Origin: Ignavibacteriota bacterium
GTDB taxonomy: Bacteria > Bacteroidota > Ignavibacteria > UBA10030 > SZUA-254
DNA length: 64,000 nucleotides
Reading direction: 5' to 3'
Assembly (NCBI GenBank): GCA_025358305.1
Contig: JANYJZ010000030.1
Span: 96,382-160,381, forward strand
Below the pieces are notes generated by a model that was not told where the DNA came from, ran no database searches, and worked only from the letters and a program-made list of their open reading frames with translations. Position numbers and translations under genes: made by a program. Shown here in pieces: positions 1,217-59,202 of the stretch; within the stretch, counting starts at the first letter, position 1; each line of letters begins with the position of its first letter.

Positions 1217-3193
1217 TTATTCTTCCTTCGCCCGCATCGAATCCCAGATAGTGTACGCCACAAGGAGCCCGAACATCACCAGGCCGAGGACCTCCGCGTT
1301 GGCGGACGCCGCCCATGCGGTGTTGAACCAGTCAAATCCGCCGAATTTCAGGAATGCGCCCAAGACGCCGAAGAGCGAACCGCCGGCGATGAACCCCGAT
1401 GCGATGAGCGTGCCGCGGGAGAGGCGCGCATTGTTGAGCTTTTCGTTCTTCGTACGGGAGGAGACCCACCAGGCGACGAGACCGCCGGCGAGGAGCGGGG
1501 TATTGAGCTCCTGCGGGATGTACATGCCGAGGGCGAAGGCGAGCGGGGAGATCTTGAGCATCGTCATGAGAAGCGCGATCACCGCCCCCACGACATAGAA
1601 CATCCACGGCGCGGCGGTGTTCGACATGAGGGGCTGGATGACGGCCGCCATGGCGTTCGCCTGCGGGGCGACGAGGGCCTGCGGGCCCTTGAACCCGTAC
1701 GTTTGGTTCAGGATGAGGATGACGACCCCCACCGTCGCCGACGAGACGAGCGTTCCGAGGAACTTCCAGCTCTCCTGCTTCCGCGGCGTCGTGCCGAGCC
1801 AGTAGCCGATCTTGAGGTCGGTGATGAACGACCCCGACACCGAGAGCGCCGTGCACACGACGCCGCCGATGATGAGAGCGCTAAGCATGCCGGAGTTCCC
1901 CGTGAGCCCGATCTGGACGAGGACGAACGAGGAGAGGATGAGGGTCATGAGCGTCATCCCGGAGACGGGGTTCGTTCCGACGATCGCGATCGCGTTCGCC
2001 GCCACCGTCGTGAAGAGGAACGAGACGACCGTGACGAGGAGGAGTCCCACGACCGCGTGGAAGATGTTGAACGTCACGCCGCCCGCGAAGAACACGAAGA
2101 GGAGGAGGGCGGTGAGGAGAATGAACATGACGTTGAAGAGCATCGGGATGTCGCGCTGGGTCCGCACCGTGGTCTCGGCGCCGGCGGACTTCCGGCGGGT
2201 GATCTCGTTGTAGGCGAGGGAGACGGCCCCGCGGATGATCTTCGAGGAGCGGATGATGCCGACGACGCCTGCCATCGCGATCCCGCCGATGCCGATCTGG
2301 CGGACGTAGCCGCGGAAGATCTCTTCCGGCGTCATCGCGGAGATGAGCTTCACCGCGCTGGCACCGAGGGGGCTCGCGAGCCCGTTCCCGATCTCGTGGA
2401 AGAGGGGGACGAGCACGAACCACGAGAGGAACGACCCGGCGCAGATGATCGTCGCGTACTTCAGTCCGACGATATACCCCAGACCGAAGACGACGGCGAG
2501 GACGTCGATCTTGAAGACCATCTTGACCTTGTCCGAGAGCGTCTGGCCGACCGACGTGATCCTCGAGGTGACGACCTCCGACCACCACCCGAGCGAGCCG
2601 ACGATGAAGTCGAACACGCCGCCGATGAGCCCGCTGACGATGAGGACGACCGCTTGCTTGCCCCCTTTCTCCCCCGCGATGAGGACCTCCGTGGTCGCCG
2701 TCGCTTCGGGGAAGGGGAGTTTGCCGTGCATGTCCTTCACGAAGTACTTCCGGAAGGGGATGAGAAAGAGGATGCCGAGGAACCCGCCAAACAGCGAGGC
2801 GAGGAAGACCTGGTAGAAGTTCACCGGGAGGTCGAGGATATACATCGCGGGAATGGTGAAGATAGCCCCCGCGACGACCGCTCCGGAGGTGGAACCGATC
2901 GACTGGATGATGATGTTCTGGCCGAGCGAGTCCTTCCTCTTGAACGCCGTGGAGAGCCCGACGGCGAGGATCGCGATCGGGATGGCGGCCTCGAACACCT
3001 GCCCGATCTTCAGGCCAGAGTAGGCGGCCGCCGCGGAGAAGAGCATCGCCATGAGGAGGCCCCAGAGGACCGACCATGGCGTGACCTCCGCCGGCGTTGA
3101 TTCGGGGGGCATGACCGGGCGGTATTCCTCTCCGGGCTGGAGTTCTTTGTACGCGTTTTCCGGCAAGCCGGTCGTGGTGACGTCTGTCTTCAT
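1217..3193 (-). CDS. Oligopeptide transporter, OPT family
   Basis: 658-aa polytopic membrane protein. Its length and repeated Gly-rich transmembrane segments are typical of the bacterial OPT superfamily. Confidence 0.8.
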   Translation of the reverse strand: MKTDVTTTGLPENAYKELQPGEEYRPVMPPESTPAEVTPWSVLWGLLMAMLFSAAAAYSGLKIGQVFEAAIPIAILAVGLSTAFKRKDSLGQNIIIQSIGSTSGAVVAGAIFTIPAMYILDLPVNFYQVFLASLFGGFLGILFLIPFRKYFVKDMHGKLPFPEATATTEVLIAGEKGGKQAVVLIVSGLIGGVFDFIVGSLGWWSEVVTSRITSVGQTLSDKVKMVFKIDVLAVVFGLGYIVGLKYATIICAGSFLSWFVLVPLFHEIGNGLASPLGASAVKLISAMTPEEIFRGYVRQIGIGGIAMAGVVGIIRSSKIIRGAVSLAYNEITRRKSAGAETTVRTQRDIPMLFNVMFILLTALLLFVFFAGGVTFNIFHAVVGLLLVTVVSFLFTTVAANAIAIVGTNPVSGMTLMTLILSSFVLVQIGLTGNSGMLSALIIGGVVCTALSVSGSFITDLKIGYWLGTTPRKQESWKFLGTLVSSATVGVVILILNQTYGFKGPQALVAPQANAMAAVIQPLMSNTAAPWMFYVVGAVIALLMTMLKISPLAFALGMYIPQELNTPLLAGGLVAWWVSSRTKNEKLNNARLSRGTLIASGFIAGGSLFGVLGAFLKFGGFDWFNTAWAASANAEVLGLVMFGLLVAYTIWDSMRAKEE

Positions 3194-3286
3194 GCGGGGT
3201 ACCTTCCGTGTTCGTCGTGTAGGGAATTAACGGGAACAATCCGGCGCCAATTTGGCGCGACGATCCCCGGTGAAGCGGAACAAGGT

Positions 3287-4558
3287 CTATCCCCTCGTCT
3301 TTTCCACCCAGATCTGGACGAGGTGCAGCACGGTCTCGACGGCCTTTTCCATCCCCCAGACGGAGGCCCATTCATTCTTGCTATGGTAGTTCTGCCCGCC
3401 GGTGAAGATGTTCGGGCAGGGAAGTCCCATCGCGGTGAGCTTCGAACCGTCGGTGCCGCCCCGGATCGGGACCCACTTCGGCGTGAAGCCGGCGCGTTTC
3501 GTCGCCTCGAACATGTAGTCGATGACCCGCGGATCTTTCTCACATCCTTCGCGCATGTTGCGGTAGGTCTCCGTCACCTGGAGCTCGATCCTCGCCTTCG
3601 GGTGGAGGGGCCGTACTTCGGCGATGATCGCCTCGAGTCTCTTTTTCAGGACGGCGAGTCCCGAGGTCTCAAAATCCCTCAGGAGGATGTTCAAGGTCGT
3701 TTTCTCCTCCTCGCCTTTGAGGACGTGGGGGTGAATGTAGGGCTCGTAGCCTTCGGTTGTCTCGGGCGCGACGTCCTTCGGCATGCGCGTGATGATATCC
3801 GCCATGACTCGGAGGGAATTCACCATGATCCCCTTCGCCGAGCCGGGATGGATGTTCCGGCCGTGGACGGTGATCGTGGCGGAGTCGGCGCTGAAGGTCT
3901 CTTTGTTGAGCTCGCCCGGCACGTCGCCGTCGACGGTGTAGGCGAACTTCGCCCCGAACGCCTTCAGGTCGAAATACTTCGTCCCGGCCCCCACTTCCTC
4001 GTCCGGCGTGAATCCGATCTTGATGTCGCCGTGCGGGATCTTCGGGTCGTTCATGAGGCTTTGGACCGCGGTCATGATGATGGCGAGGCCGGCCTTGTCG
4101 TCGGCGCCGAGAAGCGTCGTTCCGTCGGTCGTCACGATGGTCTTGCCGATGTTCTCCTTGAGCTGCGGGTTCTCGGAGGTGCGCAGCACGATCGAAGGAT
4201 CGCCAGGAAGGACGATGTCTCCCCCCTGGTACTTCTGGATGACTTGAGCCTTCACGTTCTCGCCGCTCGCGGACGGGGACGTGTCGACGTGCGAGACGAA
4301 CCCGACCGCCGGTACCTTACCGTAGGCCTTGTCCGTCGCCGCCAGGTTGCTCGGGAGCGTCGCCATGACATAGCCGTACTTGTCGATGCGGACGTCGCGA
4401 ACGCCGAGCTCCTTGAGCTCCTTTTCGAGGAGGCGCAGGAGGTCGAACTGTTTCGCGGTGCTCGGGTATGTTTCGGACTCTTCAGAGGACTGCGTGTCGA
4501 TCTTGACGTAGCGCAGGAATTTATCGAGAACTGATTCGTTCATGGTCGTTTCCTTCAA
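3287..4558 (-). CDS. pepT: Peptidase T (tripeptide aminopeptidase, M20B family)
   Basis: 423 aa with the M20 hallmarks GFVSHVDTSP, GADDKAGLA and FTPDEEVGAG, plus C-terminal GGTDGS. The length matches PepT. Confidence 0.85.
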   Translation of the reverse strand: MKETTMNESVLDKFLRYVKIDTQSSEESETYPSTAKQFDLLRLLEKELKELGVRDVRIDKYGYVMATLPSNLAATDKAYGKVPAVGFVSHVDTSPSASGENVKAQVIQKYQGGDIVLPGDPSIVLRTSENPQLKENIGKTIVTTDGTTLLGADDKAGLAIIMTAVQSLMNDPKIPHGDIKIGFTPDEEVGAGTKYFDLKAFGAKFAYTVDGDVPGELNKETFSADSATITVHGRNIHPGSAKGIMVNSLRVMADIITRMPKDVAPETTEGYEPYIHPHVLKGEEEKTTLNILLRDFETSGLAVLKKRLEAIIAEVRPLHPKARIELQVTETYRNMREGCEKDPRVIDYMFEATKRAGFTPKWVPIRGGTDGSKLTAMGLPCPNIFTGGQNYHSKNEWASVWGMEKAVETVLHLVQIWVEKTRG

Positions 4559-5407: not shown

Positions 5408-6736
5408 ATGACGAACGCACGCCGAGACCTGCCGACTGTTCATCCGTTGCGGCTCGCGGCCCTCATCCTCCTTTCCCTCGGGAGCATAGCGCCCGGCCTC
5501 GCCCAGCGCGTCCTCTCCCTCGACCAATGCACGGCCATCGCGCTTGACCAGAATCTGAACATGCGCAGCGCGAACGTCGCCCTGCGGTTGGCGAAGCTCG
5601 CGCGGGAGGAAGCGGACCGTTCCGGCCGCCCGCAAGTGCGGGCCTCCGCGAAGGCGCTCGTCGCACCCTATTCCGACAAGCTCGGGTACGATCCCGCGAT
5701 CACCGACGGCGGCCAGTACTCCGCGCAGCTCGGCGTGCAGGGGCTCCTCTTCGACGGCGGCGCACGGAGCTCCAGGGCCCGGCAGCTCGACGCCGACGTC
5801 GAACGCCTCGGCATCGACGAGCGCCGCGCCGCGAGAGACGTGCGGGCAAGCGTCGCGGCGGCGTTCTTCGACCTCCTCCAGGTGATGGATGAATCGAGCC
5901 TCCAGCGGGAACGAATCGACGGGCTCTCACAGTACCTGGACCTCGTGAACCGGCTCTACCACGGTGGCGGCGTGAACTACACCGACGTCCTCAAGACCGA
6001 AGTGAGCCTGGAGAACGCGCGGACACTCCTTGAGAAAGAGGTCCAGGCCGGCGAGTCCGCAAAACTGTCCCTCGCCGAAGCGATGGGGTCGCCGGACGAC
6101 ACGGCCTTCGCCATCGCCGCGCCGGCGCAGCCGTTCGATTCCGCCGCCGCGGAGTCCCTCCTCGTGCGCGGCGCGGTCGATTCCGTCCGATCCCTCGACC
6201 TCCAGAGCGCCAGGCTCAACGTCGAGCGAAGCCTCTTCAGCGTCGACATCGTCCGGTCGGAGCGGCTCCCGTCGGTCTCGCTCACCGGGGACGTCGGGCT
6301 CCTCTCGTCCGGCGACAATCTCAAGCTCCCGTCGGGCCGGCGCGCGGCCACCGTCGGCTACTCCGTCGGCATCACCGTGGAGAACCTCCTGTTCGACTGG
6401 GGCTCGACCGGCCTCCGGATCGAGCAGCAGCAGCTCGAAACGGAGAACCTCCGCCTGAACTTCGAACTCCAGCGCCGGACGCTCAACGCCTCGCTCGAGC
6501 GCCTGCGCGGCGAGATCCGCAGCACGATGGGCCAGATGCGCTCGATCGCCAGGACGCAGAATATCGCGGAGGATAATTACGCGCTCACGAAGGCGCAGTA
6601 CGCCGGCGGCGGCACGACCGCGCTCGACGTCCTCTCCGCCGAGCAGCTTCTGGCCGACAGCCGGCTCGCCGCGCTCCAATCGCGCGCCGATCTCAAACGA
6701 TTGCTCTCGAAGCTCGAACAATTCTATGCACAGTAG
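5408..6736 (+). CDS. Outer membrane efflux protein (TolC/CzcC-like outer membrane factor)
   Basis: Signal peptide (LRLAALILLSLGSIAPGLAQ) and two-repeat organisation of the OEP family. It is the first gene of an OMF-MFP-RND set. The start is moved to the ATG at 5408, because the N-terminal extension of the ORF in the track is Arg-rich junk. Confidence 0.75.
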   Translation: MTNARRDLPTVHPLRLAALILLSLGSIAPGLAQRVLSLDQCTAIALDQNLNMRSANVALRLAKLAREEADRSGRPQVRASAKALVAPYSDKLGYDPAITDGGQYSAQLGVQGLLFDGGARSSRARQLDADVERLGIDERRAARDVRASVAAAFFDLLQVMDESSLQRERIDGLSQYLDLVNRLYHGGGVNYTDVLKTEVSLENARTLLEKEVQAGESAKLSLAEAMGSPDDTAFAIAAPAQPFDSAAAESLLVRGAVDSVRSLDLQSARLNVERSLFSVDIVRSERLPSVSLTGDVGLLSSGDNLKLPSGRRAATVGYSVGITVENLLFDWGSTGLRIEQQQLETENLRLNFELQRRTLNASLERLRGEIRSTMGQMRSIARTQNIAEDNYALTKAQYAGGGTTALDVLSAEQLLADSRLAALQSRADLKRLLSKLEQFYAQ

Positions 6737-56914: not shown

Positions 56915-57322
56915 TTACTGCTGCTTGCCGTACACCAGAGCGGCGATGACGCCGAGGATGATGTACTGGATGAGTCCGTAACAAAACCACTGGATGGCTA
57001 GCGCATACGGGATCGGATAGACCGCGTAGGAATCATATGCCATCGGGATGGCGACCATCATGCCCACATAAAAGCCGTACCGCAGTCCTTCGCCGATCCC
57101 TTTCCCCAGATACCCCTTGGAGAAGATGAGGGTGAAGAAGTAGGAGAACACGAGCGCGGTGACGAAGTGCACCCACACCATCGCATCGGCTGCCGGGCGC
57201 ATGATCTTCGCCACGGCGTCCGTCTGGTAGATCGCTCCGAGGAGACCGACGTGGATCACAAAGTTGAGAATGTTCATCGCGATATACACCGCGAGAAACG
57301 TCATCAGAAATTTCTTATTCAT
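56915..57322 (-). CDS. Hypothetical small integral membrane protein (4 predicted transmembrane helices)
   Basis: 135 aa with four hydrophobic segments. No family recognised. Confidence 0.45.
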   Translation of the reverse strand: MNKKFLMTFLAVYIAMNILNFVIHVGLLGAIYQTDAVAKIMRPAADAMVWVHFVTALVFSYFFTLIFSKGYLGKGIGEGLRYGFYVGMMVAIPMAYDSYAVYPIPYALAIQWFCYGLIQYIILGVIAALVYGKQQ

Positions 57323-57399: not shown

Positions 57400-58185
57400 C
57401 TAGTCCCGCTCGTACTGCGCCGGCTTCCGGTCCCGGAAGAGGTCGTTCCACTCGTTGATCGATTTTCGGCGTGAAAGCATGAGATCGACCTCCCGGACGG
57501 CGATCCCCGGTTCCCGCTCGCCGAGCCGGCAGAGGATCTCGCCGCGAGGGGTAACGATCTCGCTCTTCCCGATGAACGAGAGCGAAAGCCCTCCCCGGTC
57601 CTCGGTGCCGATGCGGTTCGCTGTCGCGCTGAAGACGCGGTTCTCCAGGCAGCGCGTCACCATGGCGTCGGGGCAGTGGGGCATGACGAGGTTCGACGGA
57701 TGGGCAATGAGGTCGGCGCCCCGCAGGGCAAGGGAGCGCGCGCTTTCCGGGAAAAGCCAGTCGAAACAGACCATCATGCCGACATTCCCGAACGGGAGAG
57801 GAAAGACCGGAAAGCCGAGGTCTCCGGGAGCGAAGAGCGTGGTTTCCTTATGATAGAGATGCACCTTCCGATAGAGGCCTACGAGGCCCTGCGGCCCGAC
57901 AAGGGCCGCGGCATTGAACGGCACGTCCGCCTTCTCGGCGAACCCGTAGACCACGAAGCAGTTCCGCTTCTTCGCAAAGCCGGAGAGGGCCTGGAACGTC
58001 GGTCCGGTCGGCGGCTCGGCGAGGAGCGCGGCCTCCTTCGGGTCGGTAAAATTGTACCCGGTGTTGAAGAGTTCCGGCAGGACGAAGAGATCGGCGATGG
58101 TTCCCTCCATGAGCGAGAGTGCCTCACGGACGTTCGCGGCGGGTTCACCAAAGGCTGGATCGGTCTGTACGATGGCAAGATGCAT
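57400..58185 (-). CDS. Carbon-nitrogen hydrolase (nitrilase superfamily)
   Basis: Catalytic Glu (VLPELF), Lys (YRKVHL) and Cys (MMVCFDWLFPE) lie in the canonical order. 261 aa. Confidence 0.8.
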   Translation of the reverse strand: MHLAIVQTDPAFGEPAANVREALSLMEGTIADLFVLPELFNTGYNFTDPKEAALLAEPPTGPTFQALSGFAKKRNCFVVYGFAEKADVPFNAAALVGPQGLVGLYRKVHLYHKETTLFAPGDLGFPVFPLPFGNVGMMVCFDWLFPESARSLALRGADLIAHPSNLVMPHCPDAMVTRCLENRVFSATANRIGTEDRGGLSLSFIGKSEIVTPRGEILCRLGEREPGIAVREVDLMLSRRKSINEWNDLFRDRKPAQYERD

Positions 58186-58245
58186 GGCGTTATCTCGTCA
58201 AATGGGGCATGATGGATGAGATGGAAATGCGTCTGAAGAAACCTC

Positions 58246-58274
58246 TTGCTATTCGCGGGGAATAGTTGTATGTT
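58246..58274 (+). promoter_or_regulatory. Sigma-70-like promoter for the cold-shock gene, with a long 5' leader
   Basis: TTGCTA, a 17-nt spacer, then TATGTT. The implied leader is about 205 nt, consistent with the long csp 5' UTRs seen in other bacteria. Confidence 0.35.
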
Positions 58275-58368
58275 AGTACTGCAATCAACAGTACACCGTT
58301 GTTTCGCTTTTAAGATCTTGCTGATGTACCGTTCGCACTCCGTGTGGATTTGAGTGTCACCAGCTGTC

Positions 58369-58420
58369 GAAATCGCAATTCATGGTCGCTTTGAAAGCCA
58401 TGGTTGCGATTTGTCGTTTT
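58369..58420 (+). promoter_or_regulatory. Terminator-like hairpin followed by a T-rich tract inside the csp leader (candidate attenuator or thermosensor)
   Basis: gaaatcgcaattcatgg-[12 nt]-ccatggttgcgattt is a 15-16 bp imperfect stem, followed by gtcgTTTTaag and lying 66 nt upstream of the csp ATG. A Shine-Dalgarno sequence (AAAGGA) sits 7 nt before the ATG. Confidence 0.4.
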
Positions 58421-58485
58421 AAGAGCTTACCATCTGGGCGTACACTTCCCGCAAGGGATCATCAAATCAAAGAAAGGATTGTTCT

Positions 58486-58689
58486 ATGGAAAAAGGAACA
58501 GTCAAATGGTTCAACGGAGCAAAAGGCTTCGGTTTCATCTCACGCAATAGTGGCGAAGATGTGTTCGTTCACTATCGGTCCATCACCGGCGACGGCTACA
58601 AGAGCCTGAACGAAGGTGACACCGTTGAATTTGACGTCGAGACGGGTCCGAAAGGACTCCAGGCGGCAAACGTGACGAAGGCCTCCTAA
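58486..58689 (+). CDS. cspA: Cold-shock protein (CspA family)
   Basis: 67 aa. The RNP1 motif is KGFGFI and the RNP2-like motif is VFVHY. The N-terminus [18 protein letters not shown] is canonical. Confidence 0.95.
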
Positions 58690-58746
58690 GGGCCCTTCGC
58701 AAGATCGAACGGAGAGTCCCTCTCCGAACGAGCTTGAAACACCAAT

Positions 58747-58778
58747 CCCGCACAGAGCGATCTGTGCGGGATTTTTTT
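58747..58778 (+). terminator. Intrinsic terminator of csp
   Basis: cccgcacag-agcgat-ctgtgcggg followed by aTTTTTTTg. Confidence 0.8.
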
Positions 58779-58779
58779 G

Positions 58780-59202
58780 CTACACGCTGTACCTGTCGAC
58801 GACCTCCTGCGGGATCGGGGCGGACCTCCCGGTCGCGAGGTGCACCATCGCATATTCGAACTCGCCGTCGGCGGCGAGCTTCTCGGGGCTTTTCCGGAGA
58901 ATCTCGAACGCCACCGTCGCGGTCGAACCCTTGAGTTCGACCATCCGCGTCCGTACGATGACCACGTCCCCGAGCTTCAGCGGCCGCTTGTATTCCACGC
59001 GGCAGCGCTTCACCACCCACCCGAGGCCCATGGAGACGAACTTCTCCATCGACATCCCGTAGCAGCGCTCCATCTGGTCGTACCGCGCGGCAAGAACGTA
59101 ATCGAGGTACTTCGAGTTATGGACATGGTTGTTCATGTCGATGTCGTCGGGCCGGACGGTGAGCTCGGATTCGAACGTCGAGTAGCGATGCGGCTTCTTC
59201 AT
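58780..59202 (-). CDS. Acyl-CoA thioesterase, hotdog fold (4HBT/YbgC-like)
   Basis: 140 aa. The pattern ...VRPDDIDMNNHVHNSKYLDYVLAAR... matches the 4HBT active-site region. Confidence 0.7.
   Translation of the reverse strand: MKKPHRYSTFESELTVRPDDIDMNNHVHNSKYLDYVLAARYDQMERCYGMSMEKFVSMGLGWVVKRCRVEYKRPLKLGDVVIVRTRMVELKGSTATVAFEILRKSPEKLAADGEFEYAMVHLATGRSAPIPQEVVDRYSV

Follow-up and report, generated by a model that had tools for sequence, protein, structure and literature searches.

To our knowledge, the long structured leaders of cold-shock protein genes have been dissected almost only in Enterobacteria, and cold-shock control in other phyla is largely unknown. The leader of the enterobacterial gene cspA has established roles in mRNA stability, translation and autoregulation (PMC13271884). 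Here we examine the leader of a cold-shock gene, csp, within 64,000 nucleotides (nt) of DNA from an Ignavibacteriota bacterium (contig JANYJZ010000030.1, positions 96,382 to 160,381; this whole stretch is hereafter the window, and positions are counted from its first letter). A preliminary description of the window had placed an AT-richer leader upstream of csp and had read a hairpin within it as a possible attenuator or RNA thermosensor. We found that the leader is a conserved folded RNA, whose anatomy, conservation and covariation can be followed across related genomes, and it represents a covariation-supported RNA architecture in a poorly studied, uncultured lineage. By analogy with cspA, we consider it roughly 60% probable that csp is transcribed from the promoter at 58246-58274 with a folded leader of ~205 nt, and that this leader would place the gene under cspA-like posttranscriptional control.

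We compared 47 distinct csp leaders from related metagenome-assembled genomes (MAGs) and metagenomes. Nine contigs encoded an identical Csp protein amid genes in the same order, and their leaders were 97 to 100% identical to that of the window. In eight loci csp adjoined a homologue of the neighboring CN_hydrolase gene, and a homologous leader was present in all eight of them; the CN_hydrolase relatives had at most 70% identity and came from MAGs labelled Ignavibacteria, Ignavibacteriota, Bacteroidota or "uncultured Chlorobiaceae", and the choice of these loci did not depend on the leader. All eight leaders contain, without a mismatch, 15 nt from the 5' end of the leader in the window. A scan of metagenomes for the exact 15-mer returned 120 loci, 24 of which had a csp gene 180 to 420 nt downstream. 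A further sample was drawn by Csp protein similarity only (82 to 96% identity), among 5552 Csp homologues with E <= 1e-20 overall, and the leader was found in all of its groups but two, one with a shifted 5' element (L211/L218) and one with no leader (L222/L225).

The promoter that had been proposed upstream of csp, TTGCTA and TATGTT separated by 17 nt, lies exactly where it was drawn and proved to be conserved position by position. Across 34 leaders, TTGC(T/A)(A/T)TT at -35 to -28 and TAT(C)TT at -12 to -7 were conserved, the 17-nt spacing between the hexamers was kept, and the hexamers held a fixed distance to the first conserved base of the RNA, which lay 7 nt past the -10 hexamer in all leaders; the intervening and surrounding bases varied. 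Because the hexamers and their spacing are conserved while the bases between them are not, this promoter is, on comparative evidence, almost certainly real. It matches the consensus at 8 of 12 positions, one fewer than the cutoff of our promoter scan, and hence was not listed by that scan. Sigma-70 promoters have hexamers 16 to 18 nt apart and a start site 6 to 8 nt downstream, and the predicted csp promoter agrees with both. The transcription start is predicted at 58281 +/- 1, ~205 nt before the AUG at 58486 and upstream of the hairpin. A start downstream of the hairpin had been named as an outcome that would speak against the earlier proposal, and the scan found no promoter-like site on the + strand between 58420 and 58470. 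The leader's base composition was also as described, with a GC content of 0.445 to 0.455 for 58200-58499 versus ~0.62 in the flanks; the entire spacer 5' of csp comprises 300 nt with 44 to 46% GC.

Using RNAalifold on two alignments, we found that helix P1 closes a three-way junction with two arms, P2 and P3 (Table 1). Positions 58281-58428 folded alone gave the same junction, with a minimum free energy (MFE) of -44.1 kcal/mol (z = -2.37; 2 of 200 shuffles were as stable), and the 5'-terminal stem formed locally in the MFE fold of this 5' domain. Nothing in the leader is better conserved than the loop of this 5' stem-loop: it sits within a nearly invariant 13-mer, ACAGUACACCGUU, which was unchanged in nearly all leaders that were sampled independently of that motif. 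The distal part of P2 varies in sequence, and yet most of the orthologues that we folded form a hairpin there; a middle GUAC (58326-58329) lies inside this arm and is predicted to be paired in about half of them. At the site of the small hairpin P5, most orthologues of leader type A carry, by reading, a hairpin of another sequence (GUCUCG/CGAGAC versus GUCCCG/UGGGAC, for example), and L236 has no hairpin there.

Table 1. Predicted elements of the csp leader, the csp gene and its neighbors. Pairs, paired cells and changes refer to the alignment of 20 type A leaders by covariance model R1; MFE, minimum free energy; aa, amino acids.
Feature	Position	Strand	Pairs	Cells paired	Changes in pairs	Basis or remark
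Sigma-70-type promoter, -35 TTGCTA (58246-58251), 17-nt spacer, -10 TATGTT (58269-58274)	58246-58274	+				Sequence and conservation
5'-terminal stem-loop, stem 58283-58289 with 58298-58304, 8-nt loop AGUACACC at 58290-58297	58281-58304	+	6	85.8%	5 changed on both sides	MFE fold, covariation
P1, 5' strand GCUUUUAAGAU	58306-58316	+	11	98.6%	6 vary on one side only	RNAalifold on two alignments
P1, 3' strand GUUUUAAGAGC, contains the U-run	58416-58426	+				RNAalifold; covariance-model alignment; L214
P2 arm, GCUG 58320-58323 with CAGC 58361-58364, irregular hairpin inside	58320-58364	+	4 (closing helix)	96.3%	1 compensatory	Closing helix pairing
P3 arm, ~16 pairs, one bulge, loop 58387-58396	58370-58412	+	17	92.9%	6 compensatory	Hairpin of the preliminary description
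3' GUAC element GGGCGUACAC	58436-58445	+				GUAC conservation in leaders
P5 hairpin, UCCC-GCAA-GGGA	58447-58458	+				MFE fold; GCAA loop
Shine-Dalgarno sequence GAAAGGA	58472-58478	+				After A-rich linker
P6 start-codon hairpin, 58477-58485 with 58495-58503, AUG (58486-58488) in 9-nt loop	58472-58503 (with Shine-Dalgarno sequence)	+				MFE fold; weak feature
csp coding sequence, 67 aa	58486-58689	+				Pfam CSD match, E = 1.2e-28
csp intrinsic terminator, 13-bp stem then UUUUUUU	58744-58780	+				Consensus scan; terminator score +48.5
CN_hydrolase gene	57400-58185	-				Upstream of csp, divergent
Thioesterase gene	58780-59202	-				Downstream of csp, convergent

We built the covariance model R1 from 10 leaders, with 149 positions and 38 pairs. 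When 20 leaders of type A were aligned to it, 94% of the cells were paired, compared with 34 to 50% when the partners were slid by 1 to 3 columns, 12 pairs had changed on both sides, and none of 500 shuffles reached any of five measures, although the compared sequences are related and such shuffle counts are therefore not probabilities. Across leader types, with the strands registered by hand, P1 also showed double changes at two positions, from G-U to U-A and from U-G to G-C. Judged from these alignments, the leader is a multi-helix junction backed by covariation.

The P3 arm corresponds to the imperfect inverted repeat that drew attention to this leader, and the repeat and the bases that follow it are present as described. 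Perfect 9-nt arms at 58370-58378 and 58404-58412 extend via U79.G03 (numbered by the last two digits of their positions), the bulged base U80 and CAUGGU/GCCAUG as far as 58386/58397, so that ~16 pairs enclose a loop of 10 nt, and GUCGUUUU follows at 58413-58420, comprising GUCG (58413-58416) and then UUUU (58417-58420). As a single sequence, P3 is of modest stability (-18.8 kcal/mol, z = -2.06; 7 of 200 shuffles fold equally well), and it is the comparative data that make it secure as an RNA structure. In a MAFFT alignment of 14 leaders, 89% of its cells were paired, against 28 to 49% with slid partners, four pairs were compensatory, and none of 500 shuffles reached its covariation score. The covariation check that had been suggested for orthologous csp leaders thus points to an evolutionarily maintained RNA structure.

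P3 is nonetheless optional. Absence of the repeat from orthologues had been named as evidence against the earlier proposal, and it is absent from some of them and present in most. Loci L014 and L152 lack it and retain the promoter, the 5' stem-loop, P1, P2, the GUAC element, the Shine-Dalgarno sequence and P6, while L160, L207 and L214 have unrelated hairpins in its position and keep the remaining leader. We rejected a leader peptide in P3, where a conserved AUGG opens reading frames that, by eye, are of inconsistent length (4 codons in L009) and have no Shine-Dalgarno sequence. A tRNA-like piece that replaces P3 in L207, GGUUCAAGUCC (~960-1000, resembling a T arm), was also set aside, as ARAGORN finds no tRNA in that locus.

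Given this architecture, we asked where R1 finds it. In the 64-kb window, R1 has one match, at 58281-58428 (142 bits). It scores strongly on all type A leaders (42 to 160 bits) and weakly on other leader types, and it has no match in 28 loci that have a CN_hydrolase relative and no csp. Among the 97 remaining pattern-selected loci, it recovered a single additional leader and three that contig ends truncate; its other hits there were marginal (E >= 0.03). R1 also gives weak, strand-flipped echoes of P3. Its sole occurrence away from csp is a partial duplicate in L151. By this comparison, the leader is a conserved structured RNA that is specific to csp genes in our sample.

The L151 duplicate (2775-2905, cf. 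5937-6100 in the same locus) is an exact copy of the csp promoter and the first ~125 nt of the leader. The copied part contains the 5' stem-loop and the next hairpin and lies directly before an open reading frame (ORF) of 334 aa (2926-3930), with no csp; by eye, we judged the ORF product to be a PD40/TolB-like lipoprotein. From its sequence, this looks like a promoter-and-leader capture event.

Leaders of two further types accompany csp homologues. Type B leaders (L246-L255, L148, L179, L198 and L204) share the 5' loop and the 3' GUAC with type A and have a helix like P1, differ in their interior, and precede two tandem CSD genes; in L247-L254 a CN_hydrolase gene follows, so that csp and CN_hydrolase are linked in both the type A and the type B arrangement. 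A third type (L211-L213 and L218-L221) lies ~230 nt upstream of csp and carries GUACACC or a close variant three times; in L211/L218 the shifted 5' element reads AACGUACACCAGU. This type adjoins a convergent gene for an RRM_1 RNA-binding protein, and the region upstream of that gene has no obvious similarity to the csp leader. Finally, no such leader precedes the Csp homologue of L222-L225 (81% identical, P0110), which lies in an AT-rich context and whose start overlaps with an ORF upstream of it. Close relatives of Csp can thus lack the leader, which makes it specific to a lineage or a paralogue rather than universal among them.

One element recurs in every leader. All 47 leaders contain a GUAC in the interval from -90 to -12 relative to the AUG, compared with 26.5% of shuffles; this second GUAC is 29 to 90 nt ahead of the AUG, usually after G-rich bases and often before AC(C). 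RNAalifold pairs the 5' loop with this 3' element (GUAC.CC with GG.GUAC); neither side varies, and hence the pairing yields no covariation signal. In L214 the loop is GUAUUCC, and the pairing would survive via G-U. The three copies of GUACACC or a close variant in leaders of the L211/L218 type would suit a repeated site for protein binding better than a partner in pairing. The sequences are compatible with two options, either a loop-to-tail pseudoknot or repeated putative sites for a single-strand-binding protein such as Csp.

Two further sequence features touch these elements. GUACAC(C)G, at 58290-58299 in the window and in L211/L218 (UUGUACACCG), resembles a stretch of 16S rRNA that we take to be universally conserved, UUGUACACACCG (E. 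coli ~1390-1400); this resemblance could be coincidence or mimicry. In addition, the strands of P1 are near-identical direct repeats (UUUUAAGAUCUU at 58308-58319 and UUUUAAGAGCUU at 58417-58428), because the sequence is quasi-palindromic. Bacterial Csp proteins reportedly prefer U-rich single-strand motifs, and binding of Csp to the U-rich P1 strands could compete with formation of P1.

By analogy with cspA, how long the csp mRNA lasts and how well it can be translated may be set by the structured 5' end and the junction. As with the cold box of cspA, a trans-acting factor would feed back on expression through the invariant loop with its GUAC. Csp proteins bind single-stranded RNA, and the most plausible factor would be Csp itself. 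From the same analogy, we infer a regulatory function, a dependence on cold and the factor's identity. The loop, P1, P3 and the 3' GUAC are all mutable elements, with which one could ask if cold-box-type autoregulation is general. A more far-reaching possibility, which we hold to be doubtful, is that the 13-nt loop, the second GUAC and the covarying junction form an undescribed RNA sensor that is widespread in Ignavibacteria-like bacteria (FCB group), a counterpart of the cold box that would be read by a dedicated factor, Csp or another, possibly via a loop-to-tail pseudoknot. If this were true, the leader would be a new class of regulatory RNA rather than a diverged cspA leader.

Several points weigh against cspA-like control through a folded leader. 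The function of the leader rests on analogy with cspA, and the 24 metagenome loci were picked by the 15-nt 5' pattern, so the invariance of that element is built into them. The R1 alignment leans to the model's own structure. Within type A, P1 varies on one side only (G-U to A-U), and its double changes come from a cross-type comparison registered by hand and from L214, read by eye. In addition, the 11 nt after GCGA hold 7 to 9 U in most type A leaders, with a tail score of 3.1 to 4.3 in most orthologues, and one orthologue, L012, has a terminator score of +4.6, just above the threshold (d'Aubenton-Carafa score, optimized over all stem ends; threshold > 0). Equilibrium folding at 5, 15, 25, 37 and 45 C gave one MFE structure throughout, and blocking either strand of P1 caused no consistent change in the accessibility of the Shine-Dalgarno sequence or AUG in 11 leaders, in none of which a freed P1 strand was seen to pair with the Shine-Dalgarno sequence.

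An alternative to this reading is attenuation, wherein P3 and the U-rich stretch would halt RNA polymerase ~60 nt before the AUG and read-through would follow when temperature or Csp melts the hairpin. E. coli CspA-family proteins can act as antiterminators, and the covariation of P3, the U-rich bases after GCGA and the score of L012 all fit such a model. However, RNAalifold and the R1 alignment both place the UUUU after P3 in the 3' strand of P1, the best-conserved helix of the leader, and P1 and P3 coexist in one fold. In an Ignavibacteria MAG found by Csp similarity (L214/L215), the 3' strand of P1 reads, by eye, GAUUC-AAGAG and the 5' strand CUUUU-A-GAAUC; in L214 the U-run is gone, replaced by GAUUC, and P1 is preserved by compensating changes in the 5' strand. 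The terminator score of P3 was -19.3 in the window, compared with +48.5 for the csp 3' terminator at 58744-58780, which served as a positive control, and it was negative in 12 of 13 orthologues; a consensus terminator scan did not call P3. The loss of P3 from L014 and L152 and its replacement in L160, L207 and L214, with the rest of the leader kept, likewise speak against attenuation. By eye, with no systematic search, we noticed no conserved antiterminator able to compete with the 5' arm of P3, and a hairpin stabilized by cold would, alone, lower expression rather than induce it. Of the earlier proposal, the promoter, the long transcribed 5' untranslated region and its hairpin are supported, and the reading as an intrinsic terminator or attenuator is not. 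We consider attenuation unlikely, and weak or factor-assisted termination has similarly poor prospects. More generally, where a U-run follows a hairpin within a leader, one may be misreading a strand of a long-range helix.

Temperature might instead act directly. As a zipper-type RNA thermometer, the pairing of P6 around the Shine-Dalgarno sequence and AUG would open or close with temperature alone, and the 5' domain would only stabilize the mRNA. In the window, the AUG lies in the loop of P6, and part of the Shine-Dalgarno sequence belongs to this hairpin; its sequence is conserved in type A, it was in the MFE fold at every temperature tried, and by eye it shows matching changes in L037 (GUACC/GGUAC) and L103 (CUCCC/GGGAG). 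Leaders of the cspA family are thermometers in E. coli, where kinetic or chaperone-assisted switching is the kind described for csp leaders (PMC13271884). In a fixed register, however, P6 was 71% paired, no better than shuffles, and we keep it as a weak feature. The predicted accessibility also shifted little: from 5 to 45 C, the unpaired probability rose from 0.43 to 0.64 for the Shine-Dalgarno sequence and from 0.75 to 0.86 for the AUG. Cooling thus makes both sites slightly less accessible, the opposite of what a cold-induced zipper thermometer would need. These folding models give no evidence for a simple thermometer in the csp leader, and we regard one as improbable.

We find it equally improbable that the junction acts as an aptamer-like sensor (a riboswitch or a site for a non-Csp protein) and controls the downstream translation initiation region. 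A closing P1, covarying arms, conserved junction and loop nucleotides and optional peripheral insertions are typical of such RNAs, and the conservation of the 5' loop is extreme. Yet the motif was found only upstream of csp in our sample, which points to gene-specific feedback rather than to a metabolite, no coupling of P1 to Shine-Dalgarno or AUG accessibility was predicted, and no Rfam riboswitch matched. As for a functionless chance inverted repeat in an AT-rich spacer, the z scores of single sequences (-2.06 for the hairpin and -1.15 for the whole leader, which is not unusual) would allow it, but conservation, covariation and gene specificity over 47 leaders contradict it, and we give it almost no credence.

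Beyond the csp gene and the two neighbors listed in Table 1, the window contains an ORF of 135 aa at 56915-57322 (- strand) with no Pfam match, whose product is hydrophobic by eye. It has the same position and length in near-identical contigs of the same species (L001-L003).

We also compared the leader with described RNA families. The leader alone (58275-58488) had no match at E <= 10 among 4227 Rfam families, and 13 orthologous loci had no Rfam family at gathering score apart from rRNA. The cspA thermoregulator model, RF01766, scored 47.3 bits on the whole csp mRNA, below its gathering score of 78, and this score was carried by the coding sequence and the terminator; on orthologues it gave 40 to 55 bits. 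Reciprocally, R1 scored 0.3 bits on the E. coli cspA leader. A hammerhead-like core (GCUGAUGU...GAGUGUC) was rejected, as it lacks the required A9 and GAAA and has no Rfam match. In the literature searched, we found nothing relevant on a csp leader motif in Ignavibacteria, Bacteroidetes or Chlorobi.

Intrinsic terminators and attenuators share with this leader a hairpin followed by a U-containing stretch, within the leader. In contrast to theirs, the stem here is long and irregular with a loop of 10 to 12 nt, the U-run stands apart from the stem and is paired in P1, the score of P3 is below threshold, the hairpin is not kept in all orthologues, and no antiterminator was noticed by eye.

The likeness to enterobacterial cspA (RF01766) is closer. 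Both have a long leader before a small CSD gene (159 nt in E. coli and ~205 nt here), a stem-loop with GUAC(A) at the 5' end (UGACGUACAGA in E. coli and ACAGUACACCG here), a GNRA-capped hairpin ~30 nt before the AUG (GCCGAAAGGC and CCCGCAAGGG, respectively) and an A/U-rich linker to the Shine-Dalgarno sequence. However, only GUAC(A) is in common with the E. coli cold box, and the reciprocal R1 search finds no homology. The central three-way junction closed by P1 aligned to no structure of the Rfam cspA model, and temperature-dependent refolding is a feature of cspA, whereas equilibrium folding predicts a single structure here. We conclude that the leader is not a detectable member of RF01766 and that, by analogy, it probably works like the cspA leader.

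On present sequence evidence, the csp leader is thus a distinct, undescribed RNA architecture, not in Rfam, of a known functional kind. A parallel to it may be Chlorobi-RRM, which we take to be a candidate cis-regulatory RNA that comparative genomics placed upstream of genes for RNA-binding proteins. The gene here encodes a CSD protein and not an RRM protein, and no such Rfam family matches the leaders tested. Motifs of the Chlorobi-RRM type are likewise lineage-restricted structured leaders before a gene for a small RNA-binding protein, an arrangement that suggests autoregulation.

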